Shown: positions 30,281 to 50,494 of the stretch, piece after piece
How the letters are laid out: every line of letters begins with the position of its first letter
How positions within the stretch are numbered: the stretch's first letter is position 1
Origin: Planctomycetota bacterium
GTDB taxonomy: Bacteria; Planctomycetota; GCA-002687715; DRQF01
Assembly: GCA_036479435.1 (NCBI GenBank)
Contig: JAZGFI010000065.1
Location: forward strand, 1-51,573
Direction of reading: 5' to 3'
DNA: 51,573 bases
Translations under genes and position numbers: made by a program
Notes under the pieces: model-generated
The model's database searches: none
What the model was told of the DNA's origin: nothing
What the model saw: the letters and a program-made list of their open reading frames with translations, nothing else

Positions 30281-30916
30281 CCGGTGTCTCGCTTTGCTGT
30301 GTTAGCTGTAAGTCGAAGTGAGTACGGTGAGGTGATTGTCATGCGGGTATAGCCCGACAGACCCTCGGAATCCAACATCCTTGTCGTCCTACGTGCAGAA
30401 CGCGTCATCAGCGTTGAGCCGACCGTCTTGCCCCCATAAAAATGCACATCACCGAAATGTGGCGATCTGCGAGGCGAGTCTTGGCTGTATCTAAACAAAA
30501 GAGGTTTCACATTCAGTTTTGGCTCGGACAAGATGCACTACTCCGTGGAAATTATGATTCTTCAACCGGATCGTTGTTGCCGACGAGGATTCGGCAACAA
30601 CGATCCGCGATTGCTATTGCCGCCTGACAAAAAATTTCAAAAAAAACAGTAAGATTCTGGATGCAATTCGTAAGATCCGCCGAGTTGATTCTCGGGCTTC
30701 CAGCAATGTGGCGCGCTCATCTTGAAACTGCGGAATCTCGCACGGGGTGCCGCTCCTCTGATGCCCGTTGGCCCGTGATTCATCGTCGAAGCCGACCCCT
30801 TTTGTGGTCGAAACCCCGCAACGGTGGCATTGCGGCGCACAAAGCTTGCAGCGACTGTTCCGAAAGTAAAATTAGCGGCATCGCCCCCGATGACGCACAT
30901 TGAAAAGACGAAATGG

Positions 30917-32332
30917 ATGACAATAGCAACTCAAAATCAAAGTCTCTTTTTGGGAAAACTGCTGAGTCAGGTTTGCATCATGGGGCTCGGTGTGGTGGTC
31001 ATTCTTCATCGTCTTGGCAACGAATCTTTGGCGCAGGCGATCATCACCGCAGTCTTGCTTGTGGCGGTCTTTGGGGCTGCGCGCATTCTTTTCTGGCGTC
31101 GGGATGTCCAATGGGTTGTGCATCCCTTTACGTCCTTAGGAAGTCTCGCTCATCCTTTGATGACCGTCTTGCCGGCCTTGGTTCTGGTGGCGCTCATTGC
31201 TCCAAGCTCGTCGCTGCGGGACCCGATGGTTTTTGCCGCGGTTATGGGCTGGACGGTTGTCGGCGTTGCCTCGGCGCACATCGGGCTAGCGCTACGACTC
31301 AAACATTCTACCAAGCACGGTCGCGGCCATCCGTCCTCGGTCTTGATTGCGGGGAACAACAGCCAGAGTGGGAAAACAGTCGAAAGTTGGCTATCCGACT
31401 CGCCATTCCCAGTGAAAGTACTGGGGTTCGTTGATGTCGTGGATCAGAGCGATCCGTGGAATCGAAACGTAGATCAAGACCACATGCCGTTTCTCGGCGA
31501 CGTTTCGAAGCTTTTGCCATTGCTTAGCAATCGTGTCGTCGACGAAGTCTGGATTACGCTCCCGCTTAAATCGCGGTTCGCGGAGATCGAGACAATTGTT
31601 CAGACCTGTGAAACAGTCGGCGTTCCAGTGCGAATGACGCCAAATCCATTTCAGAGCACGACCGGCACCGTCTTGCAACGCAGCGGCAGTTCTGCAGCTG
31701 AGATGTTTTATGTCGCGTGCCCGGGAAAGCCGTTGCCTTTGTTGGTCAAACGTATCATCGATATTGGAGCTAGCGCCCTCGGTCTCTTAGTTCTCTCGCC
31801 TCTTTTCATTGTCATCGCCGCCCTCATCAAGATCACGTCGAGGGGACCGGTGTTTTTCTGCCAAGAACGATGTGGCCTACACGGGCGATCGTTTACCTTG
31901 TTTAAGTTTCGTTCAATGGTGGTGGATGCAGAGGACCTCAAAAAAGATCTTGTGGCGAAAAACGAGGGCAGTGGGCCGACTTTCAAGATGCTGCATGATC
32001 CTCGCGTCACTTCAATTGGCAACCTGTTGAGGAAGGCGAGCCTTGATGAGCTACCTCAGCTTTGGAACACGTTTCGAGGCGATATGAGTCTCGTCGGGCC
32101 GCGTCCACCCGTTGCTTCTGAAGTCGCGCAGTACGAGCCGTGGCAGCGCCGGCGACTTAGTGTACGGCCCGGAATTACCTGTATCTGGCAGGCATCGGGC
32201 CGAAGCAACATCGGTTTCGAACAGTGGATGTTGATGGATCTTGACTACGTCCACTCTTGGTCGCTCGGTCTTGATTTCAGGCTGCTGCTCAAAACGATTC
32301 CAGCTGTCATCTTGATGCGCGGGGCACAATAG
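30917..32332 (+). CDS. Priming sugar transferase (polyprenyl-phosphate hexose-1-phosphate transferase, WcaJ/WbaP-like)
   Basis: N-terminal TM helices; KRIIDI, FKFRSM, DPRVT, LDELPQL, MSLVGPRP, PGIT.IWQ; start uncertain (30824/30890/30917). Confidence 0.92.
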   Translation: MTIATQNQSLFLGKLLSQVCIMGLGVVVILHRLGNESLAQAIITAVLLVAVFGAARILFWRRDVQWVVHPFTSLGSLAHPLMTVLPALVLVALIAPSSSLRDPMVFAAVMGWTVVGVASAHIGLALRLKHSTKHGRGHPSSVLIAGNNSQSGKTVESWLSDSPFPVKVLGFVDVVDQSDPWNRNVDQDHMPFLGDVSKLLPLLSNRVVDEVWITLPLKSRFAEIETIVQTCETVGVPVRMTPNPFQSTTGTVLQRSGSSAAEMFYVACPGKPLPLLVKRIIDIGASALGLLVLSPLFIVIAALIKITSRGPVFFCQERCGLHGRSFTLFKFRSMVVDAEDLKKDLVAKNEGSGPTFKMLHDPRVTSIGNLLRKASLDELPQLWNTFRGDMSLVGPRPPVASEVAQYEPWQRRRLSVRPGITCIWQASGRSNIGFEQWMLMDLDYVHSWSLGLDFRLLLKTIPAVILMRGAQ

Positions 32333-32335
32333 GAA

Positions 32336-33766
32336 TTGTCGCAAGGCAATCAGCCCAAAGTCGGCAGTGCCGCAACGATCTTTGATCGATCAATGTCCAG
32401 GACCAGCAAAATGTTGGAAGAACAAAGTACGAAGGCGAAGGCCGCCATGCCGGTTGTGGTCGTTGGCGGCGGTATTGCTGGCATGGTCACAGCCCAGCTG
32501 CTTCGACAGTCAGGTTGCGACGTCACCCTTGTGGAACAGGAGTCGACGCTCGGCGGGAAGGTAGCTGGCGTCACGCTCGACAACGGAGATGTCGTTGATG
32601 GGTTCCACATGTCAATCTATGACCGAGATGCGGATCTGCTGCAAACGTTGAGAGATCTCCGTGTCGACTATGATTTCGTCAGCTCTTCTGCCCGCTTCGG
32701 GTTCTTTAGCGAGGGACAGCCGTATGCGCTGAAGGGCATTCGAGATCTCCTCCGATTTGATCCAGTGTCTCTCCGTCAGCGCATCAAGTTGGGCCTCTTT
32801 GGGACTGGGTTTGCTGAGAATGCAAACGGCCTCACGCACAAACTCGATCGTACCCTCGGCCTGTCTTGGCTGAAGGAGCGTTTTGATGACGCGGTTATCC
32901 AGCGCTTTTGGCATCCCGTTGTTCGAGCCAAGATGGGCCGAGCTGCCGAGGCGATGTCGGCGCTTTGGGTTCACAATCGAATCTCCTATGCGTCAAAAGT
33001 CATGGATACGCGGCTCGTCCGCGTCAAGGGGGGCATGAGAGCCATCGTTCGGGCAGCGACGATCGATCTCGATCGACTGGGCGTTCGGATTCTCAACAAT
33101 TTTCACGTTGACTCCGTGGCCATTGGGCCATCAAGAGTCAGTGTGAAAGGCCCGGCCGGAGAAATCCACGGGCGACGGGTCGTGCTCGCGGTGCCAACAA
33201 ATATCGCCCATGAAATGCTTGCGGCAGGGGGAGTACCATCGATTGGGGCTCTGTCTATCAGTGAGTATCTTAACGCCAGAGTTGGTGTTTTTGGTGTCAT
33301 GCAGCCTCTTGGCCTGCCCTTACATACCGTCATCGATGACGATAGTATTCCATTCGATTTGCTGATAGCACCGCCGTGGTCTGTCGATGCAAGTGGTAAG
33401 GGGGTCGTGTATGCGGTTCGGACTGGCGTTCAGGAGCCGGAAGACCCAGGCAGTGATGATTCCATCTTGGCCCGCATGGTCGTGGGTGTCGAAAAAGTCG
33501 CTCCTGAAATCCTCGTTGGAAATAGAATCGCCGGCAGAAGGCTCCTCCGTTGGGAAAACTACGAGCCAATTTGCGGGCCAGGATTTCTGAAGCGGAAACC
33601 TCCCTTTGAACTTGCTCCCGGCCAACTGTACATGGTAAATGCCTGCCAAGCCTATCCATTGGCGCCCAGCCTCAACAACACGGTTGCCCTGGCGGGGCGC
33701 TGCGTCGAACGGATCGTGTCGCGCGAGCGATGGGAGTCGAGTGCTGCGGCGAACAAGAAGAGCTGA
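32336..33766 (+). CDS. FAD-dependent oxidoreductase (amine oxidase/protoporphyrinogen oxidase-like)
   Basis: VVGGGIAG...LVE...LGG dinucleotide-binding fold, GFH, GG; start may be downstream. Confidence 0.78.
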   Translation: MSQGNQPKVGSAATIFDRSMSRTSKMLEEQSTKAKAAMPVVVVGGGIAGMVTAQLLRQSGCDVTLVEQESTLGGKVAGVTLDNGDVVDGFHMSIYDRDADLLQTLRDLRVDYDFVSSSARFGFFSEGQPYALKGIRDLLRFDPVSLRQRIKLGLFGTGFAENANGLTHKLDRTLGLSWLKERFDDAVIQRFWHPVVRAKMGRAAEAMSALWVHNRISYASKVMDTRLVRVKGGMRAIVRAATIDLDRLGVRILNNFHVDSVAIGPSRVSVKGPAGEIHGRRVVLAVPTNIAHEMLAAGGVPSIGALSISEYLNARVGVFGVMQPLGLPLHTVIDDDSIPFDLLIAPPWSVDASGKGVVYAVRTGVQEPEDPGSDDSILARMVVGVEKVAPEILVGNRIAGRRLLRWENYEPICGPGFLKRKPPFELAPGQLYMVNACQAYPLAPSLNNTVALAGRCVERIVSRERWESSAAANKKS

Positions 33767-33780
33767 ATTGTGAGGAATCT

Positions 33781-34539
33781 ATGAGCGTACACCAATTTCG
33801 AAGAGCGTCGCGAGCGGTCCCCTTAGCGGTGTTTCTTCTCGCTGTCGTTTCAGGGGCATTACTTTCAGGTTGCCGTAGCTATGACCAGGAGACTTACTCG
33901 GCAAGCGAAGTAAGTCTCAACGCACCGATTTCAGGTCCTTACCGTATTGTCGCTGGCGATACTCTCGCCATTGGATGTCAAGATCGTCCCGAACTCAATA
34001 CGAGCGTTTTGGTGAGACCTGACGGATTTGTGACCGTGCCCTATATTGGTGAGCTGTCGGTTGCCGGGCGAACCGTCTCTGGAGTTAGGAAATCGGTCCT
34101 GGAAGGATTGACAGGGAAGGTCCCTATTTCAGCTCTATGGATAGACGTTAGCTTGTTTGCGACACGGGAAGTGTTCGTGATTGGCGAGGTCAATTCCCCA
34201 GGAATCATGCCGATGCCCAATCGTCGCCTGACGCTTCTTGAGGCAATCACGCGTGCCGGTGGATACAACCCAGACACCGCAGACCTGAGCAAGGTTGTTT
34301 TCGTTCGTGATGAAGAGGATGGGAGGAGGGTCGCTTGGCTCGTTGATATGGAACCTGTTGTGACCGCCCGAGTTCCACCGCAGCCCATCTATTTACGTCC
34401 TGGCGATATTGTTCTGGTGCCTGATTGCGGAGTGGTGCAGGCGAATCGCTTCATAGACAGATACATCACTCGGATGATACCGGGTATCGGCGCGTTCTCG
34501 ACTCTGGCGCTTGGCTCGGGAAGTCTCGGCGGCCGCTGA
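33781..34539 (+). CDS. Polysaccharide export outer-membrane lipoprotein (Wza-like)
   Basis: Lipobox LLSGC; YRI..GD.L, VRPDG.V..PYIG, VIGEV..PG, L.PGDIV.VP. Confidence 0.92.
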   Translation: MSVHQFRRASRAVPLAVFLLAVVSGALLSGCRSYDQETYSASEVSLNAPISGPYRIVAGDTLAIGCQDRPELNTSVLVRPDGFVTVPYIGELSVAGRTVSGVRKSVLEGLTGKVPISALWIDVSLFATREVFVIGEVNSPGIMPMPNRRLTLLEAITRAGGYNPDTADLSKVVFVRDEEDGRRVAWLVDMEPVVTARVPPQPIYLRPGDIVLVPDCGVVQANRFIDRYITRMIPGIGAFSTLALGSGSLGGR

Positions 34540-35327
34540 TGGCTGATGCAGCCAAAGACTTCAACCGAGTGGCCGTCGTTACTGGGGCCGGAAGAGGAAT
34601 CGGCCAGCAGATCGCGGTCGATTTTGCTTCGCGTGGCGTGAATCTGGTGCTCAATTCCTTGGGCGAGGAGCGACTCGACGCCACTGCCCATGAGGCGACT
34701 GAGTTAGGCGCTCGAGTGGTCATTGTGCCCGGAGACGTGACTTCTACTGAGGTCGTCAAACGTATCATCTCGACGGCCCACGATGAATTCGGCAGAGTTG
34801 ACATTCTCGTGAACAACGCTGGAGCAAACGACATCGCTAGTCTTGTCATGGCATCTGAAGAGCGGTGGCAAGAACTCTTCGAAGTCAACATCTTTGCAGC
34901 CTTTCGGCTGACCAAAGTTGCGATCCGTAGCATGATTAGGAATCGTTGGGGCCGCATTGTCAACATCGCTTCGGTCGCCGGTGAGATAGGTGCTGCCTAC
35001 AACGGTGCCTATTCCTCTTCGAAGGCCGCACTCATCGGTTTCACGAAATCGATCGCAAGGGAAGTTGCGGCCACGGGTATTACCGCGAACGCAGTGAACC
35101 CATGGCACGTCAATACTGAGCTGGTGAGGAGTGCCATGAGTGGCCGTGGGAAGCTATTCGGAAAACCTAGTGAGGAATATCTCAAGTCAGTCTGCTTGGC
35201 GAGTCCGCGGAAGTCCATGATCACTGTCGAGGAAGTCTCGAGCCTCGTTACTTACCTTGCGTCGGAGGAAGCCTCCGGTATCAACGGACAGTCTATTAGC
35301 GTTTGCGGCGGCGCAAATACGGCCTGA
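34539..35327 (+). CDS. SDR oxidoreductase (FabG-like)
   Basis: TGAGRGIG, NNAG, YSSSK; TGATG coupling to wza. Confidence 0.9.
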   Translation: MADAAKDFNRVAVVTGAGRGIGQQIAVDFASRGVNLVLNSLGEERLDATAHEATELGARVVIVPGDVTSTEVVKRIISTAHDEFGRVDILVNNAGANDIASLVMASEERWQELFEVNIFAAFRLTKVAIRSMIRNRWGRIVNIASVAGEIGAAYNGAYSSSKAALIGFTKSIAREVAATGITANAVNPWHVNTELVRSAMSGRGKLFGKPSEEYLKSVCLASPRKSMITVEEVSSLVTYLASEEASGINGQSISVCGGANTA

Positions 35328-35341
35328 GGCCGATAACCTTC

Positions 35342-36169
35342 ATGCAAGACACTCGCCAAGTCACTACTCCTGACAGTTATTCGCTTCGGTATACGGTGTG
35401 GTCGAATCCTAACCGCAAGGCCACCGTAGTTATCTTGAACGGCGTGATGGGGCATTCTGGGTGGATGTCGGAAATGGGAACAGCGCTCTGCGAGACTGGG
35501 CTACATGTTGTCGGAGCAGACCGTCGCGGTTCTGGCCAAAACGAAGAGGGTTTCGGAGACATCCAGAGCCCTGCTTCTCTCTATAGTGACATCGACTTGG
35601 TCACGTCTTGCGAGCTCGCTTCGGCGGAGCCCCTTTTTGTCATTGGTTGGTGTTGGGGAGCGATTCCTGCCGTTCTGGCCAACCGGCATTTGTCGGCCGA
35701 AATCACTGGGTTAGTGCTGCTCTCCCCAGGTTTCTTCCCCTCAAGTTGCGTCATGGCGGCGGCTGAGGCAGGTCTCACGGCCAATGTCAGCATGACGGAG
35801 GCCGTTCTGCCGAGTCCCGTCAGACTTGAGATGTTCTCAGATGATCCCCTTACATTGGATCGACTCCGGCAGGATAGGCTTAAGGTTGTTCAGGTGACGA
35901 AACGCCTTCTCTGGACCGCGCAAAAAATGACGGTAGCCGCTCGAAGCGCTTGTCTTCGCCTGAAATGCCCGATCTTTCTTGGGCTAGCCTCTGACGATCG
36001 CGCCGTTGATAACGGCCGAACTCAGACGATGTTCTCGGAGCTGAGTGTCGATGTCGACATCCAGTTCTTTGACGGTCCTCATGGCTTCGTGCTCGAATCT
36101 GGCCTAGATGTCGCTGGTCGTGTGGGCAACTGGATTCACAGCCAACTTTTTCGTGTGGACGTGTCGTGA
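35342..36169 (+). CDS. Alpha/beta hydrolase (lysophospholipase-like) with Cys nucleophile motif
   Basis: DRRGSG, GWCWG elbow, Asp (DDRAV) and His (GPHG). Confidence 0.82.
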   Translation: MQDTRQVTTPDSYSLRYTVWSNPNRKATVVILNGVMGHSGWMSEMGTALCETGLHVVGADRRGSGQNEEGFGDIQSPASLYSDIDLVTSCELASAEPLFVIGWCWGAIPAVLANRHLSAEITGLVLLSPGFFPSSCVMAAAEAGLTANVSMTEAVLPSPVRLEMFSDDPLTLDRLRQDRLKVVQVTKRLLWTAQKMTVAARSACLRLKCPIFLGLASDDRAVDNGRTQTMFSELSVDVDIQFFDGPHGFVLESGLDVAGRVGNWIHSQLFRVDVS

Positions 36170-37812
36170 GTGGGGGCGATCGAGCACTCGATCGCTTCCA
36201 TTCTGCCTTGGAGCGTCCCTCTGAGGCACAGGGCGACGTGCTTTTCAATCGGATCATTGGCCCCAATCGCGACTGCCGATTTGGGCGCGCCCATGGTTTC
36301 TCCGAGATTCGTTCGATCAGTGAATATCGACGACAGGTCTTGATTAGAGACTACGAGACGATTCGGAATGAGGTGCGGCGGATGGTTGAAGGGGAGTCTG
36401 GTGTCCTTGTTTCTGAAGCTGTCAGGCATTTTTTTTCGACAAGTGGCACGACATCCGACCCCAAGCTCATTCCAGTTACCGGATCTTTGGTGCGCGAAAA
36501 ATCGCGAGCATTTTCAATCTACTGGGAGAATATCCGCCGGACCTTCCCCCAATCGACCAAGGGCCTAGTCGTATCGAATTTCTCAGACGCTAGTACGTTT
36601 CAGCAGACAAGCGGAGGGATTCCATTTAGTTCTGAGAGCGCCTACTGGGCCCAGTGGTTAAGGCGAAGCCGGGGTACAGATGGCGTGGTGCCTAGATGTC
36701 TTCTTGGTATCGAGTCAGCTGATGATCGAATCTATGCGATTGCCCGAGTTCTTCTTGGATCGTCTTTCGCCGTCTTGATGAGTCTCAACCCTTCAACCAT
36801 TGTGGTCGTTCTGGAGAAAATCAACACCCATTTCGATCTCTTGGTGCAGGACATTACGTTCGGAACTATGAGTTGTGCCAGCGAGCTCAGTTTTGAAGCA
36901 GCCGAATGGTGCCGACGCAACTTGCAACCCGATTCAGTACGCGCGGCAGACCTTCGGAACTTGTCGCAAGGCGGCGAAGGCGTTCGCACGGCCGCGGATC
37001 TTTGGAGTGCCCTAGATCTGATGATCGCATGGAAGAGTCCTTCCGTGAGATCGTACGCTCAGCAACTTCGCAAACTCGCTGGCACGGTGCCAACAATGGA
37101 CTACATAACGATGGCCTCCGAGTGCATCATTGCCGTTCCGCTCGATCCTGATGCGCGGGGAGGCGTCCTTGCGGTCGGAACCCACTTTTACGAGTTCATG
37201 CCTGTCCATTGCGCCGATGATCGAAGCGCTCAAACCCTTTTGCCTGAGGAGCTTGAGATCGGCCAAAAGTACCTTGTCATCGTCTCGACATCTGCCGGCC
37301 TATACCGATATAATATTGGAGATGTCGTTGAGGTGACTGGGTTTTCGAAGAGCACTCCCATCTTGGAGTTTCAGGGTCGACATGGTGCCACGTCTTCAGT
37401 TACCGGCGAGAAGCTAACGGAGCCTCAAGTCATTGGGGCTGCTCTTGCCGCCGCCGCCAGCGCAGGACTCTCGATGACCGACTTCGTCGTGTTCCCTACG
37501 GACGACCGGCTTCCCAGTTATGTACTGCTCATGGAAATGAGCAACGAAGTTCAGGCTGCGTCCATGCGGACCTTGGCTCGCGCCTTTGACCAAGAGCTTT
37601 CTCAGCGCAATATCGAGTACGCCGCGAAACGCGAATCACTGCGACTCGGGTCGCCGGAAGTCTGGGTAGCACAGGTTGGGGAGTTCGCGGCCTGGAATGA
37701 ACGGAGGATAAAGGCAGGTGCTAGCGCGTCACAGCTAAAGACAGCTCACCTAAGCAATGACTCCTCTTTCGGATCCAAAATAGCTGTGCGGGAAAAACAA
37801 CGTGCGCGTTGA
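36166..37812 (+). CDS. GH3-family acyl-adenylate-forming amide synthetase
   Basis: STSGTT.DPKLIP, Y..ASE, FYEF, GLYRYNIGDVV, GEK, N.EY..KR. Confidence 0.9.
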   Translation: MSGGDRALDRFHSALERPSEAQGDVLFNRIIGPNRDCRFGRAHGFSEIRSISEYRRQVLIRDYETIRNEVRRMVEGESGVLVSEAVRHFFSTSGTTSDPKLIPVTGSLVREKSRAFSIYWENIRRTFPQSTKGLVVSNFSDASTFQQTSGGIPFSSESAYWAQWLRRSRGTDGVVPRCLLGIESADDRIYAIARVLLGSSFAVLMSLNPSTIVVVLEKINTHFDLLVQDITFGTMSCASELSFEAAEWCRRNLQPDSVRAADLRNLSQGGEGVRTAADLWSALDLMIAWKSPSVRSYAQQLRKLAGTVPTMDYITMASECIIAVPLDPDARGGVLAVGTHFYEFMPVHCADDRSAQTLLPEELEIGQKYLVIVSTSAGLYRYNIGDVVEVTGFSKSTPILEFQGRHGATSSVTGEKLTEPQVIGAALAAAASAGLSMTDFVVFPTDDRLPSYVLLMEMSNEVQAASMRTLARAFDQELSQRNIEYAAKRESLRLGSPEVWVAQVGEFAAWNERRIKAGASASQLKTAHLSNDSSFGSKIAVREKQRAR

Positions 37813-38911
37813 AGCTGTCGAGTTATGGCATATCCAAATCCCCATGAGGCATCCGGTCATCCATGCGGCGGCTACGCGGAAGACAGCGGAGTGCGTTGTC
37901 GTCGGGCTATCATCAACAGAGGAAGGCGTCGTCAGTTATGGCGAAATCCAAGCACGACCCTACGTTACGGGTGAGTCGGTTAAAGGTGTCGTCGAAGTGA
38001 CGGGTCCTCGTTTAGCTCGACGACTGATGGCACAGCAATTCGAAACGAGCGAAGACGTCAAGAGTTGGATCGCCGTGGAGATTGACAGTGCGGGGCGAAA
38101 CCTTGCGACCTTTGCAGGTTTCGAGCTTGCCCTCCTCGACTTGGCGGGCGCGTGCTTCGGCGAAGATCTTGAGCCTACGACTGTGCCTTGGGCTCCTCCA
38201 GTACCTGGACGTGTCATTGGATTTGATGTTCCCACAGATCAGCTTTTGCGGCATTGTGCTCTTTTGAAAATGACGGGTTGTCGTCACCTAAAAGTTAAAG
38301 TGGGGCTGCCTGATGATCGAACACGGCTTGAATTGATCACTTCGAGCTTTGCTCCCGACATGAAGATCAGGATCGACGCGAACGCCGCATGGAGCGCCTC
38401 TGAGGCTGTCGCCAGGCTGCGCCAGCTAGAGCACTTTGATCTCGAACATGTTGAACAGCCGGTTGCCGCGGGCGATGTTGACGGGCTTCGCCGTGTCCGA
38501 AAAGAGACCCGTTTTGCTGTAATGGCCGATGAGTCGGTCTGTACATTCAATGAAGGGCGTAGGCTTATTGAGGCCGAAGCCGTTGATGCTTTCAATATCA
38601 GATTAGCGAAGTGCGGTGGTTACTACGGCTCCACGAGACTGGTGCGGCTTGCGCGCGACGCGGGTATTGACACCCGGCTCGGCACTATGGTTGGAGAAAC
38701 TAGTATTCTTGGCCGTGCGGCTTTGGTGTTTGCTCGGGAAATCGGTGGGTTCGACTACATCGAAGGCCTGGGGCAAAGTGGGTTCCTTTTAGAGAAGGAC
38801 CTCAGAAAAACGAGCGACAAGTTCGATCACTTAGCAAAGGGTGCTGGCGCTGTGTGCCGGAAAACACTTAAGAGCCTTTCGGCGGCAACGCCGAGGATTT
38901 TTAGAGAATAG
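37802..38911 (+). CDS. Enolase-superfamily enzyme (MLE / dipeptide epimerase-like)
   Basis: KVKVG, RIDAN, EQP, MADES, IRLAKCGG. Confidence 0.88.
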   Translation: MRVEAVELWHIQIPMRHPVIHAAATRKTAECVVVGLSSTEEGVVSYGEIQARPYVTGESVKGVVEVTGPRLARRLMAQQFETSEDVKSWIAVEIDSAGRNLATFAGFELALLDLAGACFGEDLEPTTVPWAPPVPGRVIGFDVPTDQLLRHCALLKMTGCRHLKVKVGLPDDRTRLELITSSFAPDMKIRIDANAAWSASEAVARLRQLEHFDLEHVEQPVAAGDVDGLRRVRKETRFAVMADESVCTFNEGRRLIEAEAVDAFNIRLAKCGGYYGSTRLVRLARDAGIDTRLGTMVGETSILGRAALVFAREIGGFDYIEGLGQSGFLLEKDLRKTSDKFDHLAKGAGAVCRKTLKSLSAATPRIFRE

Positions 38912-38921
38912 GGAGATTTTC

Positions 38922-39176
38922 TTGGACCTCAGGAACAAAATACGAAGTTTCGTTGCGTCGGTTTCATCGTCGGCGGCAACAGACATCGACAATGATGATG
39001 CTCTGCTCGACACAGGAGTTATCGACTCAGTCGCCATGATCGAACTCGTGGTTTGGGTCGAGGAGGAGTTTGGGTTCTCAATCGAAATCGACGAGTTGAC
39101 CCAAGATAATTTTGGCACGATCGACAGGTTGGCCAAGTTTATTGAAAGTCACGATAGTGAGTCTGCAAAGCGATAA
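38922..39176 (+). CDS. Acyl carrier protein
   Basis: GVIDSVAMIELVVWVEEEFG phosphopantetheine motif; TTG start after GGGAG. Confidence 0.9.
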   Translation: MDLRNKIRSFVASVSSSAATDIDNDDALLDTGVIDSVAMIELVVWVEEEFGFSIEIDELTQDNFGTIDRLAKFIESHDSESAKR

Positions 39177-40738
39177 TGTCTTCGGCATGGAATGCTCAGC
39201 ATGGCCACGGCCTCATGGGGCTGTTGAGGCGATCGGCGGCTGATTTTGCGGCGAAGCCAGCGGCTACAGCGGATGGTGAGTCAATCTCGTTCGCATGTCT
39301 GCTGGCGACGGCCGGTGGACTTGCTAGGGAGCTGTCGAGACGCGGCGCTTTCGCAGGGAGCCGGGTCGCGATACTTAGCGAAAATTCCTTAGATGCGATC
39401 GTCGCCTTTTGGGGCGTCTTGTCGCTCGGAGCGATCAACGTGGACGTGCCGGTACAACTGAGTGATGACGTCGTTGCATCGATTCTAGATGAGTGTCGGC
39501 CGGTTGTGATTCTGGCCTCCTCCGACCAAGCGAAGCGGCTTGCTTGTGAGGCATTCGCTTCGGAATTACCGCCGCTGTTGATTATCGATGAAGTGCGTCA
39601 CTCCGACCGGAGTGGGCAGCCCTTCTCTGAGGTTAGCGTGGATCCCAATGATGTCGCGATGGTCATCTACACCTCCGGCAGCACCGGACGTCCGAAGGGA
39701 ATCATGCTCACTCATGACAACGTGCTGTCGAACATCACGGCCGCGAACCAGCTAACAGGTTTTTCTTCGAGTGACAGCATCCTGATCATTGTTCCCCTGT
39801 ATTACATCCATGGTCGATTTCAACTCTTGACCCACGCCCTGCTCGGCGGTTCTGTTGTTTTGGGGCCCGGGATGCAGCTCCCGGAGTCTGTCGTTAACTG
39901 TCTTAAGGAAAGCGAAGTCACCGGTTTTTCGGGAGTGCCATTCCATTTCAAAGCGCTCATGAGCCGCAGTTCATTTACGACGGCCCACCTTCCTCATCTG
40001 CGGTATCTACTTGTAACCGGCGGTGCTTTACAGACCGAGGATATCGCTCGTTTGAATGCGATGCCGGATGTGTCTGTTCACTTGGCCTACGGTCAAACCG
40101 AAGCTTCTCCACGTGTTACGTGGGCAGGCCCAGGTGAAATCGCTGGCCGACCTGGCTCTTGCGGGCGCCCTCTTTCGGGTGTCATTGTCGAAATCGTCGA
40201 TGAGCAAGGGCGATCGATGGCACCGGGCCTTGTTGGACAGGTGGTGGTTGGAGGCCCAGGTATCATGAGAGGCTACGTTTCTGGCGACGAGCGTGATACC
40301 GGTAAGATCGACGACGCTGGGCGCTTGTGGACTGGAGATTTCGGTTACCTCGACGAAGACGGGTACCTCTTTTTGGGTGGGCGTGCATCAGAAATGATCA
40401 AGTCTGCGGGCCAAAGAATTCACCCTCGAGAAATCGAGGACGTGATTAACTCTTACCCCTGCGTTGTCGAGTCCATCGTTTTCGGTATCGACGACCCCGG
40501 GCTCGGCCAAAGAATCGCCGCTCTTGTCGTAGCGCCGAGGGAAAAGGGGATAGAAGAAAATATTAGAAAACACTGCCTCGATCGACTCTCTTACGTTCGG
40601 ACACCACGAGAGCTATTTCTCGTGACTAGCCTTCCGAAAACGGCCTCTGGAAAAGTCGACAGACGAGCTGCTCTTGAGGTTCTTGCGACCTTTCTTCAAG
40701 ACGCAACGATCTTGACGCGAGATTCGAAGAATGGCTGA
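39176..40738 (+). CDS. AMP-dependent ligase (ANL superfamily)
   Basis: YTSGSTGRPKG, YGQTE, TGD, GR..EMIK, PKTASGK; TAATG coupling to the ACP gene. Confidence 0.92.
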   Translation: MSSAWNAQHGHGLMGLLRRSAADFAAKPAATADGESISFACLLATAGGLARELSRRGAFAGSRVAILSENSLDAIVAFWGVLSLGAINVDVPVQLSDDVVASILDECRPVVILASSDQAKRLACEAFASELPPLLIIDEVRHSDRSGQPFSEVSVDPNDVAMVIYTSGSTGRPKGIMLTHDNVLSNITAANQLTGFSSSDSILIIVPLYYIHGRFQLLTHALLGGSVVLGPGMQLPESVVNCLKESEVTGFSGVPFHFKALMSRSSFTTAHLPHLRYLLVTGGALQTEDIARLNAMPDVSVHLAYGQTEASPRVTWAGPGEIAGRPGSCGRPLSGVIVEIVDEQGRSMAPGLVGQVVVGGPGIMRGYVSGDERDTGKIDDAGRLWTGDFGYLDEDGYLFLGGRASEMIKSAGQRIHPREIEDVINSYPCVVESIVFGIDDPGLGQRIAALVVAPREKGIEENIRKHCLDRLSYVRTPRELFLVTSLPKTASGKVDRRAALEVLATFLQDATILTRDSKNG

Positions 40739-42110
40739 TCTGAGGGAGTTCATCTCGACCTTGCGGGCGCGTCGGCCCCGTGACGTCCTCGAAATCACGC
40801 GGAACGTGAGTCCTCGACATGAGACGGCGGCCGTCATGACGCTGTTAGAAAGGAAATTCCGCTCACCACTGGTGATCTTCCGTAGCATTGCGAATTCGAA
40901 GCATGCAGTCGTGACCAACGTCTGTGGTTCGAATGACCGCATCGCGCTTGCACTAGACTGTGAACGCGATCATATCCGCGAGGTTTACAGCAAGGCCTGT
41001 CGAAATCCAATGGCAGCCGTGGAGATAGGAGATGGTCCCGTTCGTGAGATCGTCCAAGAGGGCGTAGACGTGGACCTCACCCGGCTGCCGCAAATGGTCT
41101 ATCACGAAGGCGATGTAGACCGTCCCTACATCACGGCCGCCATTGTCGGAGCACGTGATCCGGACTCAGGCAAGGTAAACCTTAGCTTCCACCGGTTGAT
41201 GGTAGCTGGGCGCGCTAGCACTGGAATCTTCATGGCCCGAGGCAAACACCTTGATTTAATCCACCGCAAGTACAAAGCTCGCGGTGAGCCAATGCCAGTA
41301 TTCGCAGTCTTGGGTGTGCACCCAACGTTTTCGCTTGGTGCTCTCCATACCGGGGATCTCGAAACAGAGGAGTATGGCGTGATCGGCGCCCTACAAGGAG
41401 GACCCGTGGAGTTAGTGTCGAGCCTGGTGAAGGGCGTCCCCCCGGTACCCGCCCTGGCTGAGATAGCTTTAGAAGGTCACGTGTTGCCGGATGAAACGGT
41501 GAGCGAGGGGCCTTTCGGTGAATTTACGGGTTACGCCACGGGCAAGATAAAGGCACCCGTGCTTCGCCTCGCAGCCCTTTCTTGTCGCCGAAATGCACTT
41601 TTCCAGGACATCATAAGCGGGCAACGTGAACACTTGCTTTTGCCGATACCGGCAATCGAGTGCCACGCGCTAAGGGTTGCGCGCGAGGTAAGCGAACGCG
41701 TTCTGGATGTTGTCGTCGTCGCCCCGATGACCTTGGCGGTCGTCATCGATAAGTCTGACGACGACGAAGCAAGGCGCGTAGTTCGTCGCCTTCTTGAGAG
41801 TGATGTCTACACGAAGAACGTCATCGCCGTAGATTGCGAAGTCAATGTGCGAAAGCCAGGAGAACTACTTTCGGCCATGTCGCTCCATACCCAGGCCGAT
41901 CGTGACTTGTCGATCCTGAGGCATTGCCAGGGGTCCGAGATAGACCCGTCGGTCGAGTCATTGACGGGAACGACTGCGAAGCTAGGGATCGATGCCACGA
42001 TGACGACATCCGCCAGGGGGCGAGCCGTCCGCAATGTCGTTCCTCAAGAAGTGTTGGATAGAATCGACCTCTCTGAGTTGCTCTCTCCTCTTGGGCCGGA
42101 ATCCAATTGA
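40731..42110 (+). CDS. UbiD-family (de)carboxylase
   Basis: DLREFI..L, YITA, HR, AEI.LEG, EGPFGEFTGY, IDPS, KLGIDAT. Confidence 0.9.
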   Translation: MADLREFISTLRARRPRDVLEITRNVSPRHETAAVMTLLERKFRSPLVIFRSIANSKHAVVTNVCGSNDRIALALDCERDHIREVYSKACRNPMAAVEIGDGPVREIVQEGVDVDLTRLPQMVYHEGDVDRPYITAAIVGARDPDSGKVNLSFHRLMVAGRASTGIFMARGKHLDLIHRKYKARGEPMPVFAVLGVHPTFSLGALHTGDLETEEYGVIGALQGGPVELVSSLVKGVPPVPALAEIALEGHVLPDETVSEGPFGEFTGYATGKIKAPVLRLAALSCRRNALFQDIISGQREHLLLPIPAIECHALRVAREVSERVLDVVVVAPMTLAVVIDKSDDDEARRVVRRLLESDVYTKNVIAVDCEVNVRKPGELLSAMSLHTQADRDLSILRHCQGSEIDPSVESLTGTTAKLGIDATMTTSARGRAVRNVVPQEVLDRIDLSELLSPLGPESN

Positions 42111-42128
42111 CCGTGGAGCATCGATCGC

Positions 42129-43850
42129 ATGCGTGACTACAAAAGAGTGTACGACACGGACGTACTCGTCATCGGTGGTGGCGGGGCTGCAACCGCCGCA
42201 ACGATCAGTGCGAGCGAAAGAGGCGTTCGCACCATGCTAGGCGTCAAGGGCCAGTTTGGTGTTCCAGGTGTCCGAGGTGCCGGTGCAACCTCAAATCCCT
42301 TAGCGGACTTCTGGACTATTAGGACCGTAGGTCCGGATGGCAGCTTCTTCAACCCACCGGATGCCGTGTATCAGGACATGCTCCGGGCCGGCCTGGGGAT
42401 GGCGGTCCCGGACTTATGCCGGATCTATGTCGACGAAGTCTCCGGTGCTGTCCGCCGCCTTCGAGACATGGGCATGAAGTTTCGGAGCAAGATGCTCGCC
42501 ACGATGCCTGCCGGCGAGCGTTCGAAAGTAAACGGTATCGTCTCGATCCAAAAGGCGATCATCGAGGAGACGAAGACCGCGGTCCTTGAGCGGGCGAATT
42601 TTACGGATCTGATCGTGCGTGACGGCAGATGTGTCGGTGCGATGGGGATCCGTGATGATGGCGAGGTTTTCGTTGTCCATGCAGGGGCCGTGATTCTGGC
42701 AACCGGAGGAGTCGGGCAGCTTTTTCGATTCAGTTTCAACCCACCCGGGAATACCGGCGACGGTTATGCGATGGCCCTTAGGGCTGGGACTGAACTGACA
42801 AACATGGAGTTCATGCAGCAAGGACTTGCGACCACGTGGCCAGAGAAGGCGATGGTCATGCTTTACGAAATGAAAGAGCCGTACCGACTGTTCAACGCAC
42901 AGGGCAAGGAGTTTGTTGGGAACTACCTGAGCGATGGCGCCACACTGGAGAGTGTCTCCACGCTCAAGGCGACGCACTGGCCCGTATCCTGCCGGGACGA
43001 TTCTTTTCACCTCGATCGTGCGATTCACGGCGAGGCCCTAGCCGGACGAGCGACGGACTCGATGGGAGTGTTCATCGACCTGTCCAGCGCACGCCGTGGC
43101 TTCGAACCGCAGATGTTTGTCGACTTCATGCGTTCGCGTGGCATCGATCCTAGCCAAGACCTTCTCCAAGTACAGATCCATCATCATACGAGCAATGGCG
43201 GTGTGGTGATTGACTCGGACGCTCAATCTTCGCTGCCGGGCCTTTTTGCTATTGGTGAAACGGCAGCATGGCAGGGTGCGGATCGTCTCGGTGGAACGAT
43301 GCTTGGCGGATCACAGGTCTTTGGGTGGCGCGCCGGGGCGAAAGCTGCCGCGAGCGCTTCCGAGGGTTCGCACTCAGGCGGTGGTATCGGCGTGGCCGAC
43401 GAGCTTCAGGAGCGAGTAGACAAGAGGAAAGAACAGTCGGGTGATGTTGCAATCGAGCATCTCCTGAGCGAGCTACAGGACACCATGTGGAGAGAACTCC
43501 TGGTCGAGAAAGACGCCGCGGGACTTGAGCGAGCGATGCATTGCGTTGAGGTCCAAAGGGAACGCCTTGAAGCGGGAGTTGCCATTCCGGATTCCACAGC
43601 CTTGGTTGCGTCATTCGAGCAGCAAAACCTCCTCGATATCGCCGAAGTTATCATCCGTTCAGCCTCTGAGCGAAAAGAGTCTCGGGGAAGCCACTATCGT
43701 TCAGACTTTCCGGAACGCGACGACGCTAATTGGGGACGGCGGCTGCTCGTGAGTAGGAGCGGTGACAGCATTCTGGTTCGTCCCAGCGATTGCCGAGAGA
43801 GCATTCTAGATGACGGCCCCATGACGGTTCGCATTTCCCCTTGGGGGTGA
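42129..43850 (+). CDS. SdhA/FrdA/NadB-like FAD-binding flavoprotein
   Basis: VLVIGGG.A, LATGG, NTGDG, MEFMQ, HHTSNGG, GADRLGG, RKESRGSHYRSDFP. Confidence 0.88.
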   Translation: MRDYKRVYDTDVLVIGGGGAATAATISASERGVRTMLGVKGQFGVPGVRGAGATSNPLADFWTIRTVGPDGSFFNPPDAVYQDMLRAGLGMAVPDLCRIYVDEVSGAVRRLRDMGMKFRSKMLATMPAGERSKVNGIVSIQKAIIEETKTAVLERANFTDLIVRDGRCVGAMGIRDDGEVFVVHAGAVILATGGVGQLFRFSFNPPGNTGDGYAMALRAGTELTNMEFMQQGLATTWPEKAMVMLYEMKEPYRLFNAQGKEFVGNYLSDGATLESVSTLKATHWPVSCRDDSFHLDRAIHGEALAGRATDSMGVFIDLSSARRGFEPQMFVDFMRSRGIDPSQDLLQVQIHHHTSNGGVVIDSDAQSSLPGLFAIGETAAWQGADRLGGTMLGGSQVFGWRAGAKAAASASEGSHSGGGIGVADELQERVDKRKEQSGDVAIEHLLSELQDTMWRELLVEKDAAGLERAMHCVEVQRERLEAGVAIPDSTALVASFEQQNLLDIAEVIIRSASERKESRGSHYRSDFPERDDANWGRRLLVSRSGDSILVRPSDCRESILDDGPMTVRISPWG

Positions 43851-44013
43851 TGCCGGCCATCGTGGCTTGCATGTTTGCCCAGTTGCTAACGATCATTGGG
43901 GGAAGTTGTGCGGAACGGTATGCTCACCGCCAACCAGCAATAGTCTCGCGCGAGCGAAGATGGTGCCCGCACAGTCGACGCCTGTTTCTGCCTCATTCAA
44001 CCCACGAAAGCCC

Positions 44014-45114
44014 ATGATTCAATCCGATAGCCAAGAAAGAAACGGTACCGCTGACGGCACGCGAATACTGCGTGCCGCCGTCATTGGTGCGGGTGCCATT
44101 GCGCGCGAGCACATGAAGTGCTTGGCTGAGAGGTCTGACGTCGAAGTTGTTGCCGTTTGCGACCTCTCGGCCGCTTCAGGCCAAGCTGCCGCCGAAAGGT
44201 ATGGCGTGCATCGCTCCTTCACCCACCACTCAGAGCTCCTCAAGGAGGCTCGCCCAGACGTCGTTCACGTTGCGACGCCACCACAATCGCACTTTGCGAT
44301 TGCTCGGGATGCGCTACTTGCGGGCTGTCACGTTATCGTGGAAAAGCCAGTCACGGTTTCCTATGAGGACGCCGCCCAGTTGCTGGAACTCGCTCGGGAG
44401 CGTGAGCTTATTCTGGTCGAGGATCAGAACTACTTATTCAATGGATCGATACAGCGCATTTTTGAACTCTTGAATTCCGGTGAGTTTGGCGAGGTTATCA
44501 GCGTTGAGGTCAGCATCTGCTTAGACATCATTTCTGGAGGTCGCTTTTCGGACACCAATGTGCCGCACCCGACTCTGGCGATGCCCGGCGGAGCCATCTT
44601 CGATTTTCTTCCTCATCTAGCGAGCTTGGCATGGGGATTTGTTGGCCGTCATCATGCGGTGGCCACCTCATGGGAGAAAAAGGACCCGGCGACCCCGCTT
44701 CCCTACGACGAATTTCGCGCGCTCGTACGAGCTGAGCGGGGAACCGCTTCGCTGTCATTCAGCGCCCATACTCAACCGGATGTGTTCTGGGTTCGCGTCA
44801 ACGGGACAAAGATGCGTGCATCGGCGAATATGTTCGAGCCGCGACTGACTCTGGACCGGGTCCGAACCGGCTTGCGCCCTCTCATTCCGCTTTTCAATGG
44901 ACTAAAGGAGGCGCGTGACGTTCGGCGGGCAGCGATTGGCGGGCTTTGGCGGAAGCTCGCGGGTGGACCGGGTGCCTATGAAGGGCTATGGAGACTCGTA
45001 GGGCAGACTTATGATGCGATCCAAGGTCAAGCCCCAGTTCCTGTTTCGCTGGCCCAAGTCGATGATGTTTCGAGGTTGGTACAGGATCTGACAGCTACGG
45101 AGAATCGGCTATGA
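44014..45114 (+). CDS. Gfo/Idh/MocA-family oxidoreductase
   Basis: IGAGAIA, VATPPQSH, VEKP, D..PH. Confidence 0.88.
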   Translation: MIQSDSQERNGTADGTRILRAAVIGAGAIAREHMKCLAERSDVEVVAVCDLSAASGQAAAERYGVHRSFTHHSELLKEARPDVVHVATPPQSHFAIARDALLAGCHVIVEKPVTVSYEDAAQLLELARERELILVEDQNYLFNGSIQRIFELLNSGEFGEVISVEVSICLDIISGGRFSDTNVPHPTLAMPGGAIFDFLPHLASLAWGFVGRHHAVATSWEKKDPATPLPYDEFRALVRAERGTASLSFSAHTQPDVFWVRVNGTKMRASANMFEPRLTLDRVRTGLRPLIPLFNGLKEARDVRRAAIGGLWRKLAGGPGAYEGLWRLVGQTYDAIQGQAPVPVSLAQVDDVSRLVQDLTATENRL

Positions 45115-46163
45115 AGGTTCTTGTCAGTGGTGCGAATGGGTTTTTGGGACGACACGTCGTTTCGACGCTGCTGGCACGTGGGCACGAAGTCCGTGCACTC
45201 GTGCGCCCGGCATCCCGCACAGATCATCTTCAATGGGCCGACAAGGTCGAATTTCACCGTGCCGATCTCCGCCAAAAACAGCAGTTGCCTGCTGCCATGG
45301 ACGGCATCGATGCCGTCCTCCACCTGGCCGCTGCCGTGGCTGGTGACGAGAATCAACAATTTGTGCACGCCGTCGTTGGAACCGAAAACCTTGTAGCGGC
45401 GATGGCCGAAGGCGGCGTTCGACGGATGCTCCTATGCAGTAGTTGCTCTGTGTACGATTGGAGCAAAGTGAATGGAGTGCTATCTGAGGATTCACCCCTG
45501 GAAGAAAGCGGCCTCTACGACCGGGACGGCTACGCCATTGCGAAGCGCTGGCAAGAGCGAGTCGCGCAGAGATTCGCGGATATGGGTGAGTGTCGATTGA
45601 CCGTTGTTCGGCCGGGACTGATATGGGGGCGTGGAAGAGAATCTGTGCCTGGCGAGGGCGTTTCTTGCGGGCCATTCGACCTTGTTTTTGGACCCATGGG
45701 TCGTCTTAGGCTCACTCATGCAGAAAACTGCGCTTCGGATGTCGTGAACGCGCTTGAGGCCGATACCGCTGAAGGTCATCGTTACAACATCATCGATAGG
45801 GATAGCATCCGAACTTGGCGCTGGGTCGGCGAGCGAAACCGACGGACGCAGGGACGCCGGATCAGAGTGCCAATTCCTTACTGCGTCGGTATCGGTGTGG
45901 CAATTCTCGCGAGCATGACGAGCCGGCTGCTTTTTGGTCCCAACGGGAAGCTCCCAGGCCTCTTTGTACCAAGGAGGTTTCAGGCGAGGTTCAAGCCCGT
46001 ACGCTACAATACGGCCGCCATAGAGCGTGCCTCGGGAGCACACCCGGCTCTGAGCTTCGAAGATTGTCTGGCGCGGACTTTCGGCGAGGGAGACTCGGGT
46101 GCCGACAGCCCCAGTGGGAGCCTATCTTCTGCTGCCACACGCAAGCCACTCTCAACGAGTTGA
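45111..46163 (+). CDS. NAD-dependent epimerase/dehydratase
   Basis: VSGANGFLG, HLAA, SS, YAIAK, RPG; ATGA overlap with upstream gene. Confidence 0.88.
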   Translation: MKVLVSGANGFLGRHVVSTLLARGHEVRALVRPASRTDHLQWADKVEFHRADLRQKQQLPAAMDGIDAVLHLAAAVAGDENQQFVHAVVGTENLVAAMAEGGVRRMLLCSSCSVYDWSKVNGVLSEDSPLEESGLYDRDGYAIAKRWQERVAQRFADMGECRLTVVRPGLIWGRGRESVPGEGVSCGPFDLVFGPMGRLRLTHAENCASDVVNALEADTAEGHRYNIIDRDSIRTWRWVGERNRRTQGRRIRVPIPYCVGIGVAILASMTSRLLFGPNGKLPGLFVPRRFQARFKPVRYNTAAIERASGAHPALSFEDCLARTFGEGDSGADSPSGSLSSAATRKPLSTS

Positions 46164-46453
46164 GACCACCGGCTCCAAGATTCCTCGCATGAAGATACTT
46201 TCGATGAGTAGAGATTTTAAGGTGCGGAACAGGGAATGCTGGACTGGGGGGCGTGTCCCCACCGCGACAAGTATCATGATCCTAAGGAGCACTATAGTTG
46301 AGTCTGAGGCACAAGCAGTCTGCCGACACCGTGTGTCCGCCGGGTGCGAGAGGACGAGACCGCGAGGCTTAGCTTGTTGCTAGTTCTGATGGGATGCGAC
46401 GACATGGCTGTCACTTTAGTAGAGCTTCCCGCCGCGATAGGGAACCGCCTCAG

Positions 46454-47287: not shown

Positions 47288-47319
47288 TTGGGCACAGGAT
47301 CGGAGCCGAAGCGTAAAAG

Positions 47320-50489: not shown

Positions 50490-50494
50490 GTGTT

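Follow-up and report, generated by a model that had tools for sequence, protein, structure and literature searches.

How charged, hydrophobic and antigenic a surface polysaccharide is, and how phages recognise it, depends on its non-carbohydrate substituents. Enzymes of the GH3 family adenylate a carboxylic acid and join the product to an amino acid. In the excerpted report on the planctomycete Singulisphaera acidiphila, the GH3 protein OlsH is described to join fatty acids to ornithine using ATP (PMC12493201), and in that on Vibrio cholerae O1 the tetronate genes VC0248-VC0252 (wbeK-O) represent an acyl-decoration set inside the O-antigen locus (PMC3441752). N-acyl-D-alanyl groups on amino sugars occur in bacterial glycans, as stated in a further excerpt (PMC3210612), and genes for N-acyl-aminoacyl sugar substituents were not identified in the literature consulted. 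Here we analysed a contig of 51,573 nucleotides (JAZGFI010000065.1, C65 in our numbering), which will be referred to as the window and derives from a planctomycete metagenome-assembled genome (MAG; 299 contigs, 92% complete). It carries a cassette of eight genes (34539-43850, plus strand) located within an exopolysaccharide (EPS) operon. Our preferred, still tentative interpretation, to which we give somewhat less than an even chance, is that this cassette and a neighbouring methyltransferase gene are an accessory module of envelope-glycan loci, making a tailored N-acyl amino acid that is activated on an acyl carrier protein (ACP) and passed to the envelope glycan.

Domain calls on window proteins were made with Pfam models for 36 large open reading frames (ORFs; 17 + 19), smaller ORFs lying outside the scan, and with NCBIfam models, and were judged against the model cut-offs. 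Pfam found all eight families that the first-pass annotation had assigned, each at the expected position on the plus strand. The first gene encodes a short-chain dehydrogenase/reductase (SDR) of the 3-hydroxyacyl/3-oxoacyl type (34539-35327, ORF from 34425; adh_short 188.8 bits), followed by an alpha/beta-hydrolase-fold enzyme (ABH; 35303-36169, likely start ATG 35342; Hydrolase_4), an ATP-dependent GH3 acyl acid-amino acid amide synthetase (36166-37812; GH3 N, M and C domains with 154.9, 80.5 and 75.9 bits) and an enolase-superfamily enzyme of the MLE subgroup (37802-38911; MR_MLE_C, 124.9 bits, and MR_MLE_N). An ACP of 83 amino acids (38925-39176; PP-binding) begins with a TTG start behind GGGAG; an alternative GTG start at 38841 would overlap the enolase-fold gene. 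The remaining genes encode an AMP ligase, i.e. an ANL adenylating enzyme (39176-40738; AMP-binding 248.9 bits plus AMP-binding_C), a UbiD-family decarboxylase dependent on prenylated flavin mononucleotide (40731-42110; UbiD N, core and C domains) and a stand-alone SdhA/FrdA/NadB-like flavoprotein (42129-43850; FAD_binding_2 and Succ_DH_flav_C).

Translational coupling had also been claimed, and all five junctions read in the sequence as described: TGATG at 34537, where the stop codon of the gene for a Wza-like polysaccharide export protein (33730-34539, plus strand; Poly_export and SLBB_2) overlaps the SDR start, GTGA at 36166, an 11-nt overlap at 37802-37812, TAATG at 39174 and an 8-nt overlap at 40731-40738. 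On the other side, a gap of 16 nt separates the flavoprotein gene from that of a Gfo/Idh/MocA oxidoreductase (GFO; 43867-45114, plus strand; GFO_IDH_MocA in Pfam and NCBIfam), which is joined by an ATGA overlap at 45111 to the gene for an NAD-dependent epimerase/reductase-like protein (45111-46163, plus strand; Epimerase in Pfam and NCBIfam). The cassette is coupled on both sides to EPS genes, in agreement with its earlier description as embedded in a polysaccharide operon, and the ketosynthase and condensation domains reported to be missing were likewise not found in the 36 large ORFs of the window.

Conservation of the cassette was analysed in a cross-species scan with one genome per species and an alignment of 23 GH3 relatives as query, which yielded 513 relatives; the best 80 loci were kept and their gene content was scored by tblastn with the window proteins. 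A scan of genome contigs with the GH3 protein alone gave no match, the 23-relative alignment being required. At least six of the eight cassette genes were present in 26 of the 80 loci from other species (all eight in 15, seven in eight and six in three loci), which argues that the gene set is more than a chance arrangement. These loci belong to Myxococcota, Acidobacteriota, Planctomycetota, Chloroflexota, Gemmatimonadales and Gammaproteobacteria/Pseudomonadota, which places the conserved cassette in six or more phyla of bacteria. It was seen in Sorangium sp. So ce1335, Paraliomyxa miuraensis, many Nannocystaceae MAGs, Acidobacteriota (Ca. Angelobacter and others), two Planctomycetota, Granulosicoccus and other Gammaproteobacteria/Pseudomonadota, two Chloroflexi and one member of the Gemmatimonadales. 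By this pattern, the eight genes constitute a single functional unit that is conserved. Among the cassette proteins, conservation is highest for the flavoprotein, with 56-69% identity across phyla by tblastn. Among related genomes, the GH3 was detected in 18 of 41 and in none of the eight same-family genomes searched; in one genome from a different family (G024) the complete set of eight is present and its order preserved, with 38-61% identity, a polyprenyl glycosylphosphotransferase (PGT) gene and polysaccharide deacetylase genes adjoining the cassette. Base composition showed no anomaly (GC 0.545-0.58 in the cassette versus 0.52-0.61 in the window) and hence no compositional sign of recent transfer.

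Gene order in the compared loci varies block-wise (GH3-enolase, ACP-ligase-UbiD and SDR-flavoprotein-ABH), suggesting sub-modules. About 20 further loci of the 80 have an ancient ABH-enolase-GH3 core only, and nine Nannocystaceae-type loci a GH3 paralogue alone. GH3 paralogues of Nannocystaceae and related MAGs (L042, L043, L047, L048, L050, L051, L052, L054 and L036/L053) are 40-41% identical to the window GH3, with none or one other cassette gene nearby; in MAG CAYSPB01 a complete cassette (L030) occurs together with a GH3 that stands alone (L052). Within the window, a terminator-like GC hairpin followed by ATTTTT is located at 38877-38896 (plus strand) in the last enolase-fold codons, just before the ACP start. 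Its position is the boundary of two blocks of genes that are relocated independently of each other in other phyla, and it may be due to chance: terminator-like sites in the scanned region were modestly above chance level (27 seen, 18.1 +/- 4.7 expected) and promoter-like sites at chance level (8 seen, 8.2 expected).

Additional partners were sought by all-against-all ORF comparison of 32 loci and by targeted tblastn. Homologues of a SAM methyltransferase, encoded divergently from the EPS operon at 29087-30280 (minus strand; 397 amino acids), were found beside the cassette in seven loci (L049, L062, L068, L086, L092, L099 and L100) with 44-50% identity over nearly the full length by tblastn. 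These loci span Planctomycetota, Gamma/Pseudomonadota and Chloroflexi; the methyltransferase is a ninth conserved cassette partner. It carries a Methyltransf_12 domain at residues 205-312 in Pfam and has no NCBIfam match, and its N-terminal approximately 190 amino acids match no family. PGT homologues (45-56% identity) were observed near the cassette in four loci (L034, L035, L049 and L057). The amine-oxidase-like FAD protein encoded at 32336-33766 (plus strand; Amino_oxidase 60 bits) had no tblastn match in the 80 loci and is considered a context gene only, and the GFO and epimerase-like genes were not found beside full cassettes in the same 80 loci by tblastn; epimerase-like genes come after GH3 in Melainabacteria core loci.

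Several lineages show neighbours of their own. Directly upstream of GH3, Granulosicoccus-type loci (L063, 8048-9772; L068, 7426-9930) encode a TPP-dependent enzyme, accompanied in L068 by an enoyl-CoA hydratase, and both enzymes are possible lineage-specific suppliers of the acid substrate. Two myxobacterial loci contain defence-type genes in or adjoining the cassette, namely nSTAND1 NTPase and CHAT-SIR2_2 genes (L029, 14854-19720) and AAA_21, SEFIR/TIR and AAA_5 genes (L031, 14930-19231). In 12 Nannocystales-type loci an operon that runs away from the SDR gene carries the genes for an L-lysine 6-transaminase (TIGR03251, 592 bits, above the cut-off of 520.8), a GT1-like protein and a Wzx-like MOP flippase. 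The source genome has an L-lysine 6-transaminase gene at the edge of another contig (C295), for which no end overlap with C65 was found. Lysine was nevertheless rejected as the starting material, as the transaminase is not cassette-specific in Planctomycetota: TIGR03251 scores above cut-off in 25 of 41 relatives, including all eight same-family genomes without a detected GH3, and lies on another contig than the cassette in G024. It is only a lead for the myxobacterial variant.

The patchy spread across phyla, with the GH3 not found in the eight searched genomes of its own family and present in another, would also suit a diffusible small molecule, such as a signal, a siderophore-like compound or an antibiotic acyl-amino-acid conjugate, whose linkage to EPS genes reflects co-regulation or shared export only. 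A stand-alone ACP, adenylating enzymes, redox tailoring and a methyltransferase are typical of secondary metabolism, and myxobacteria are among the carriers. However, a dedicated exporter or regulator conserved with the cassette was not seen in the compared loci, linkage to PGT, flippase, glycosyltransferase and Wzy genes recurs in several phyla, and the genes are tightly coupled within an operon. We consider a diffusible product improbable.

The three GH3 domains (PF03321, PF23571 and PF23572) score above their cut-offs, and the nucleotide-binding residues T92, S93, G94 and K100 are invariant in 23 relatives; OlsH (NF052613) is the sole NCBIfam match, with 127.5 bits against a cut-off of 620. 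The best PDB matches of the enolase-fold enzyme are 2p88, the dipeptide epimerases 3jva and 1jpm and N-acylamino acid racemases (127-71 bits, 1r0m being among the racemases/epimerases compared). All 31 sequences compared share K164, K166, D192, E218, D243 and K270, which, according to alignment with 2p88 and 3jva and to the roles of these positions in the superfamily, would represent the catalytic set of a KxK on strand 2 and a Lys on strand 6 and the Asp/Glu/Asp metal ligands. We take 2p88 to be the N-succinyl-Arg/Lys racemase of Bacillus cereus; its entry title says only 'MR/MLE family protein'. N-acyl-amino-acid racemases abstract the alpha-proton beside the free carboxylate of an N-acylated amino acid. 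As a GH3 product would be exactly such an N-acylated amino acid with a free carboxylate, it fits as substrate of an enolase-fold epimerase, which is the strongest mechanistic logic of the cassette. We propose that the enolase-fold enzyme is an N-acyl-amino-acid racemase/epimerase. The SDR matches the 3-hydroxybutyrate dehydrogenase model TIGR01963 with 233.8 bits, below the cut-off of 307, and its best PDB matches are 3R-hydroxyacyl-CoA dehydrogenase, hydroxybutyrate dehydrogenases and FabG.

The same logic could be taken to mean that GH3, enolase-fold enzyme and ABH together form an ATP-driven acylate-racemise-deacylate route converting L- to D-amino acids for the glycan or envelope, with the ACP branch as a separate acyl supply. 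This triad is the most widespread sub-module and stands alone in about 20 of the 80 loci, the racemase residues are intact, and 2p88, the nearest solved relative, presumably acts in such a route. Nevertheless, a Cys nucleophile on an alpha/beta fold would be unusual for a deacylase, the corresponding enzymes of planctomycete core loci are of the Ser type, and the route leaves unexplained why in 26 loci the triad is accompanied by ACP, ligase, UbiD and flavoprotein. We regard it as very improbable.

The ACP contains the phosphopantetheine-site Ser in a GVIDSV motif and shows weak matches to AmcB, ACP_for_OlsHI and DltC, all below cut-offs. In adenylation domains of nonribosomal peptide synthetases (NRPS), the Asp of the A4 'FD' motif binds the alpha-amine of the substrate. 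The A4 region of the AMP ligase has the CoA-ligase form PLYYIHG, with H212 and G213 in 29 of 29 sequences, and without the NRPS amino-group Asp its substrate is expected to lack a free alpha-amine; DltA/DltC-like aminoacyl loading was ruled out on this ground. LgrA adenylation domains, malonyl-CoA synthetase and oxalate-CoA ligase are its best PDB matches, and TIGR03098 is its second-best NCBIfam match (276 bits, cut-off 592.35). The enzyme is of the CoA-ligase type and, as we propose, loads the ACP.

Instead of the Ser of a G-x-S-x-G motif that defines Ser alpha/beta hydrolases, the ABH has a Cys in its nucleophile elbow G-[WF]-C-W-G. This Cys, which aligns with Ser122 of human monoglyceride lipase, as well as Asp232 and His260 are present in 25 of 25 orthologues. 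Distant copies comprise 24 of the Cys and 17 of the Ser type, and planctomycete core-only loci encode two Ser-type enzymes per locus. An AlphaFold model (pLDDT 97) has monoglyceride lipases as nearest folds with a TM score of about 0.82. OlsI gave no match to the ABH at E<=1, the sole match of the genome to NF052614 (cut-off 385) being one of 20.4 bits on another contig (C39). A Cys-Asp-His triad on an alpha/beta fold suggests a thioester intermediate and acyl transfer, and we propose that the ABH is an acyl-thioester transferase. Precedent for amide formation from an acyl thioester is BAAT, an acyl-thioester:amino acid N-acyltransferase with a Cys-Asp-His triad, as described in the excerpted source (PMC6934887).

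UbiD scores marginally under the cut-off of TIGR00148 (242 versus 244.85 bits) and matches 6h6x/6h6v best in the PDB (190 bits). N150, H154, R155, H173, E259 and E264 are invariant in 25 of 25 sequences, the two Glu residues lying in an EGPFGE motif. A UbiX gene is located outside the locus (contig C262; 192 bits, cut-off 188), adjoining a UbiA/MqnP-like prenyltransferase gene. Alignment of the flavoprotein to 1chu showed that R289, H353 and R386 are invariant (NadB R290, H351 and R386) and that Gly232 occupies the position of NadB His244, within the stretch NMEFMQQGLATT that is invariant in 19 of 19 orthologues. The NadB residues H244, R290, H351 and R386 are taken by us to bind the dicarboxylate, so that the flavoprotein has lost one His of the full SdhA/FrdA/NadB dicarboxylate His/Arg set. 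With Gly in place of this His, we read it as a desaturase whose substrate would offer a single carboxylate in place of the two of succinate. Pfam revealed neither an Fe-S nor a membrane subunit gene for the flavoprotein in the locus. The acids that UbiD enzymes decarboxylate are alpha,beta-unsaturated or (hetero)aromatic ones, and a desaturase followed by UbiD, acting on an alpha,beta-unsaturated acid, would thus make a coherent pair. A UbiD paired with an SdhA-like desaturase is not described in the literature searched.

The data show which genes are present, how they are coupled and conserved, their residue patterns and their genomic association; from these we infer the following product and catalytic steps. 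GH3 would adenylate a carboxylic acid and link it to the alpha-amine of an amino acid, and the enolase-fold enzyme would invert the alpha-carbon of this N-acyl amino acid to give the D form. The AMP ligase would then activate a carboxylate without a free alpha-amine, either that of the product or of its acid part, and load it onto the ACP. Judged from the enzyme families, the flavoprotein may desaturate a -CH2-CH2-COO- end, from which UbiD would remove the alpha,beta-unsaturated carboxylate, and the SDR would handle the 3-hydroxy/3-oxo position. Finally, the Cys-Asp-His ABH would accept the acyl group of the thioester and hand it on to an amine or hydroxyl of the acceptor. In the source genome the acceptor is most likely a sugar, probably de-N-acetylated, of the EPS for which the surrounding Wzx-type locus is responsible, a polysaccharide de-N-acetylase being encoded there as well. 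In a more detailed form, which we regard as quite unlikely, GH3 and the epimerase would make the N-acyl-D-amino acid, flavoprotein and UbiD would generate a terminal alkene or enamide on the ACP, and the Cys ABH would link the unit by an amide bond to a de-N-acetylated repeat-unit sugar. The 'deacetylate then re-acylate' logic of Nod factors offers a parallel, the enzymes here being entirely different.

The first-pass annotation had tied the cassette to polysaccharide loci. Flanks were annotated for 24 of the 26 loci with at least six cassette genes (L041 and L083 are without flanks), and glycan-assembly families were present within 10 kb of the cassette in 17 of these 24, a raw count with no random-locus baseline. 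The families counted were GT1/GT2/GT4, Wzy_C, Polysacc_synt flippases, Bac_transf, UDP-GlcNAc 2-epimerase, Polysacc_deac_1, Polysacc_synt_2, NeuB and UDP-glucose dehydrogenase, and deacetylase genes adjoin the cassette in L049 and L046. The link to polysaccharide loci thus stood for the majority of the full cassettes and did not hold for the other seven of the 24 (L025, L028, L055, L063, L068, L086 and L099), which have no glycan gene within 10 kb, nor for core loci in non-glycan or lipid-type contexts.

These exceptions and several further points weigh against transfer to a glycan. Many of the 17 positive loci are from related Nannocystales and not phylogenetically independent; two of them, L033 and L037, were included solely because of their BLAST clusters, and L040 solely because of a PIG-L domain and a weak match to Wzx. 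Where the ABH-enolase-GH3 core occurs without ACP, ligase, UbiD and flavoprotein, glycan genes were found in none of four planctomycete loci, Melainabacteria-type core loci have lipid-type neighbours (SRPBCC, ICMT/PEMT, three 3beta-HSD/NAD_binding_4 genes resembling fatty-acyl reductases, and Mpo1-like), and a Gaiellaceae core locus has an MMPL neighbour. A sugar aminotransferase was not found in the window. Moreover, GH3 requires a free acid, whereas the ACP branch yields a thioester, and the two branches may therefore not join as drawn above.

In part the same points suit a rather unlikely alternative, in which the product is a lipid of membrane or surfactant type that stays free, either a tailored N-acyl (D-)amino acid or an acyloxyacyl aminolipid in the manner of OlsH/OlsI. 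It would be co-regulated with the polysaccharide and not attached to it. The Cys ABH would then be an O-acyltransferase or lipase, consistent with its monoglyceride lipase fold, and a MOP-family protein the exporter. A free lipid agrees with the full-cassette loci that lack glycan genes, with the lipid-type neighbours of core-only loci, with OlsH as the only NCBIfam match of the GH3 and with the ACP_for_OlsHI match of the ACP. In the excerpted account, ornithine lipid is formed by OlsH together with OlsI, an alpha/beta-hydrolase, and no bacterial GH3 is characterised other than this producer of a membrane lipid (PMC12493201). On the other hand, the Ols models are missed (127.5 versus 620 bits for OlsH, 38 versus 130 bits for the ACP, OlsI absent), the solved relatives of the AMP ligase include malonyl-/oxalyl-CoA ligases, and the SdhA-like flavoprotein and UbiD need a carboxylate beside the attacked bond, which a plain fatty acyl-ACP does not offer. 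The cassette is, furthermore, translationally coupled to wza inside an EPS operon. On balance we retain transfer of an ACP-activated N-acyl amino acid to the envelope glycan as the preferred reading.

The surrounding EPS locus begins with the gene for the initiating enzyme, a PGT (30824-32332, plus strand; Bac_transf 215 bits, TIGR03025 346.9 bits with a cut-off of 295.55). Downstream of the epimerase-like gene, genes for a WecG/TagA glycosyltransferase, a Wzc-like protein, a RIO1/Kdo-kinase-like ORF and Wzx follow at 46394-51573 (plus strand; Glyco_tran_WecG, weak Wzz/AAA_31, RIO1 and Polysacc_synt_3). The locus thereby has PGT, Wza, Wzx and WecG as parts of a Wzx/Wzy-type system, with Wzc weak and below cut-offs; Wzy was not identified among the annotated EPS locus genes. 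The RIO1/Kdo(WaaP)-kinase-like ORF (49614-50489) overlaps both the Wzc-like end and the assigned Wzx start, and the true starts of all three genes are uncertain. The Wzx gene (Polysacc_synt_3) is cut by the contig end at 51573. An exact 127-nt end overlap (window 51447-51573) joins C65 to the reverse complement of contig C43, and C43 is joined to C21 likewise. Across the C65/C43 junction Wzx reads as a complete protein of 552 amino acids, and the two contigs, both in reverse orientation, add approximately 18.7 kb of EPS genes. They encode a Polysacc_deac_1 deacetylase, an unassigned 444-aa protein, two Acyl_transf_3 O-acyltransferases, a 2OG oxygenase, one GT1, three GT2, a 1104-aa SGNH/AlgX-carbamoyltransferase fusion and a methyltransferase. 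The cassette accordingly sits mid-way in a large, heavily decorating EPS locus. The fusion gene (L110, 5493-8807 of C21, minus strand) and carA/carB for carbamoyl-phosphate synthase, located directly upstream of the EPS operon at 24810-29061, give a hint of a carbamoylated polysaccharide.

Other genes of the window include a lasso-peptide-like cluster at 13309-24623. It consists of a methyltransferase gene (13309-14022, minus strand) and genes for an Asn_synthase homologue (14140-16056, minus strand), an ABC exporter (16076-17917), a large S8 peptidase (18461-21613), an HPr-kinase-like protein (21638-22576), Transglut_core3 (22879-23505) and NTP_transf_5 (23583-24623). A pair of Asn_synthase and NTP_transf_5 genes also adjoins the cassette in a Chloroflexi locus (L092). 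The contig starts with a HipA-family kinase toxin gene (236-1612, minus strand; HipA_C and Couple_hipA). A class-III aminotransferase encoded at 1785-3278 was identified as HemL and is unrelated to the cassette.

If the preferred reading is correct, it would assign a role to a module whose carriers come from soil, sediment and marine habitats, represent six or more phyla and include cultured myxobacteria, and the known range of GH3 enzymes in bacteria would no longer end with ornithine lipids. The reading would further provide a physiological partner for an orphan branch of N-acyl-amino-acid racemases and a new desaturase-plus-UbiD route to decarboxylated acyl groups; with a terminal alkene or enamide, the glycan-linked unit would be a widespread, undescribed envelope-glycan decoration. 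Even with a free lipid as product, the cassette represents a well-defined, testable orphan pathway. The combination had not been recognised as a characterised pathway before, and full-text searches, supplements excluded, led to the same result: none of the literature matches listed describes a pathway with these genes.

Compared with the known systems, OlsH/OlsI has a GH3, an alpha/beta-fold enzyme and an ACP that resemble their cassette counterparts and likewise comes from a planctomycete. However, the cassette ACP reaches only 37-38 bits against the NF052616 cut-off of 130, the ABH is unmatched by OlsI and has a Cys nucleophile, OlsG is lacking, and the Ols operon is without counterparts of the enolase-fold enzyme, AMP ligase, UbiD, flavoprotein and SDR. 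As the scores stay below all three Ols model cut-offs, the cassette lies outside this system and membership in the ornithine-lipid pathway was ruled out. The first-pass annotation had noted neither this resemblance nor the methyltransferase partner nor the Cys nucleophile of the ABH. The XrtA/PEP-CTERM EPS-associated set (TIGR03098 and TIGR03100) is uncharacterised and combines ligase, ACP and alpha/beta hydrolase in EPS loci, as the cassette does, but no exosortase was seen in the window and a PLP decarboxylase is missing; membership was ruled out here as well, with 276 versus 592.35 bits for TIGR03098 and 15.7 versus 168.45 bits for TIGR03100. The MLE-subgroup racemases and epimerases provide the best solved matches of the enolase-fold enzyme and share its KxK/D/E/D/K set in spite of low identity, and we know of no member of this subgroup that is paired with a GH3 ligase. 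UbiD/UbiX decarboxylases such as Fdc1, AroY and 6h6x/6h6v have the three-domain architecture, the Glu/Arg/Glu residues and the metal-site residues of the cassette UbiD, the differences being the TIGR00148 score just under its cut-off and a UbiX gene that lies outside the locus. BAAT shares the Cys-Asp-His triad with the ABH as a functional analogy, the nearest folds of the ABH being those of the lipases and its sequence relation to BAAT lying outside the comparison. The tetronate set of Vibrio cholerae O1, which presumably includes an ACP-like and a ligase-like protein and which was compared by description and not by homology, has no GH3, enolase-fold, UbiD or SdhA-like enzyme. According to its excerpted description, it nonetheless presents ketosynthase-free acid-activating and redox genes within a polysaccharide locus that N-acylate an amino sugar (PMC3441752).

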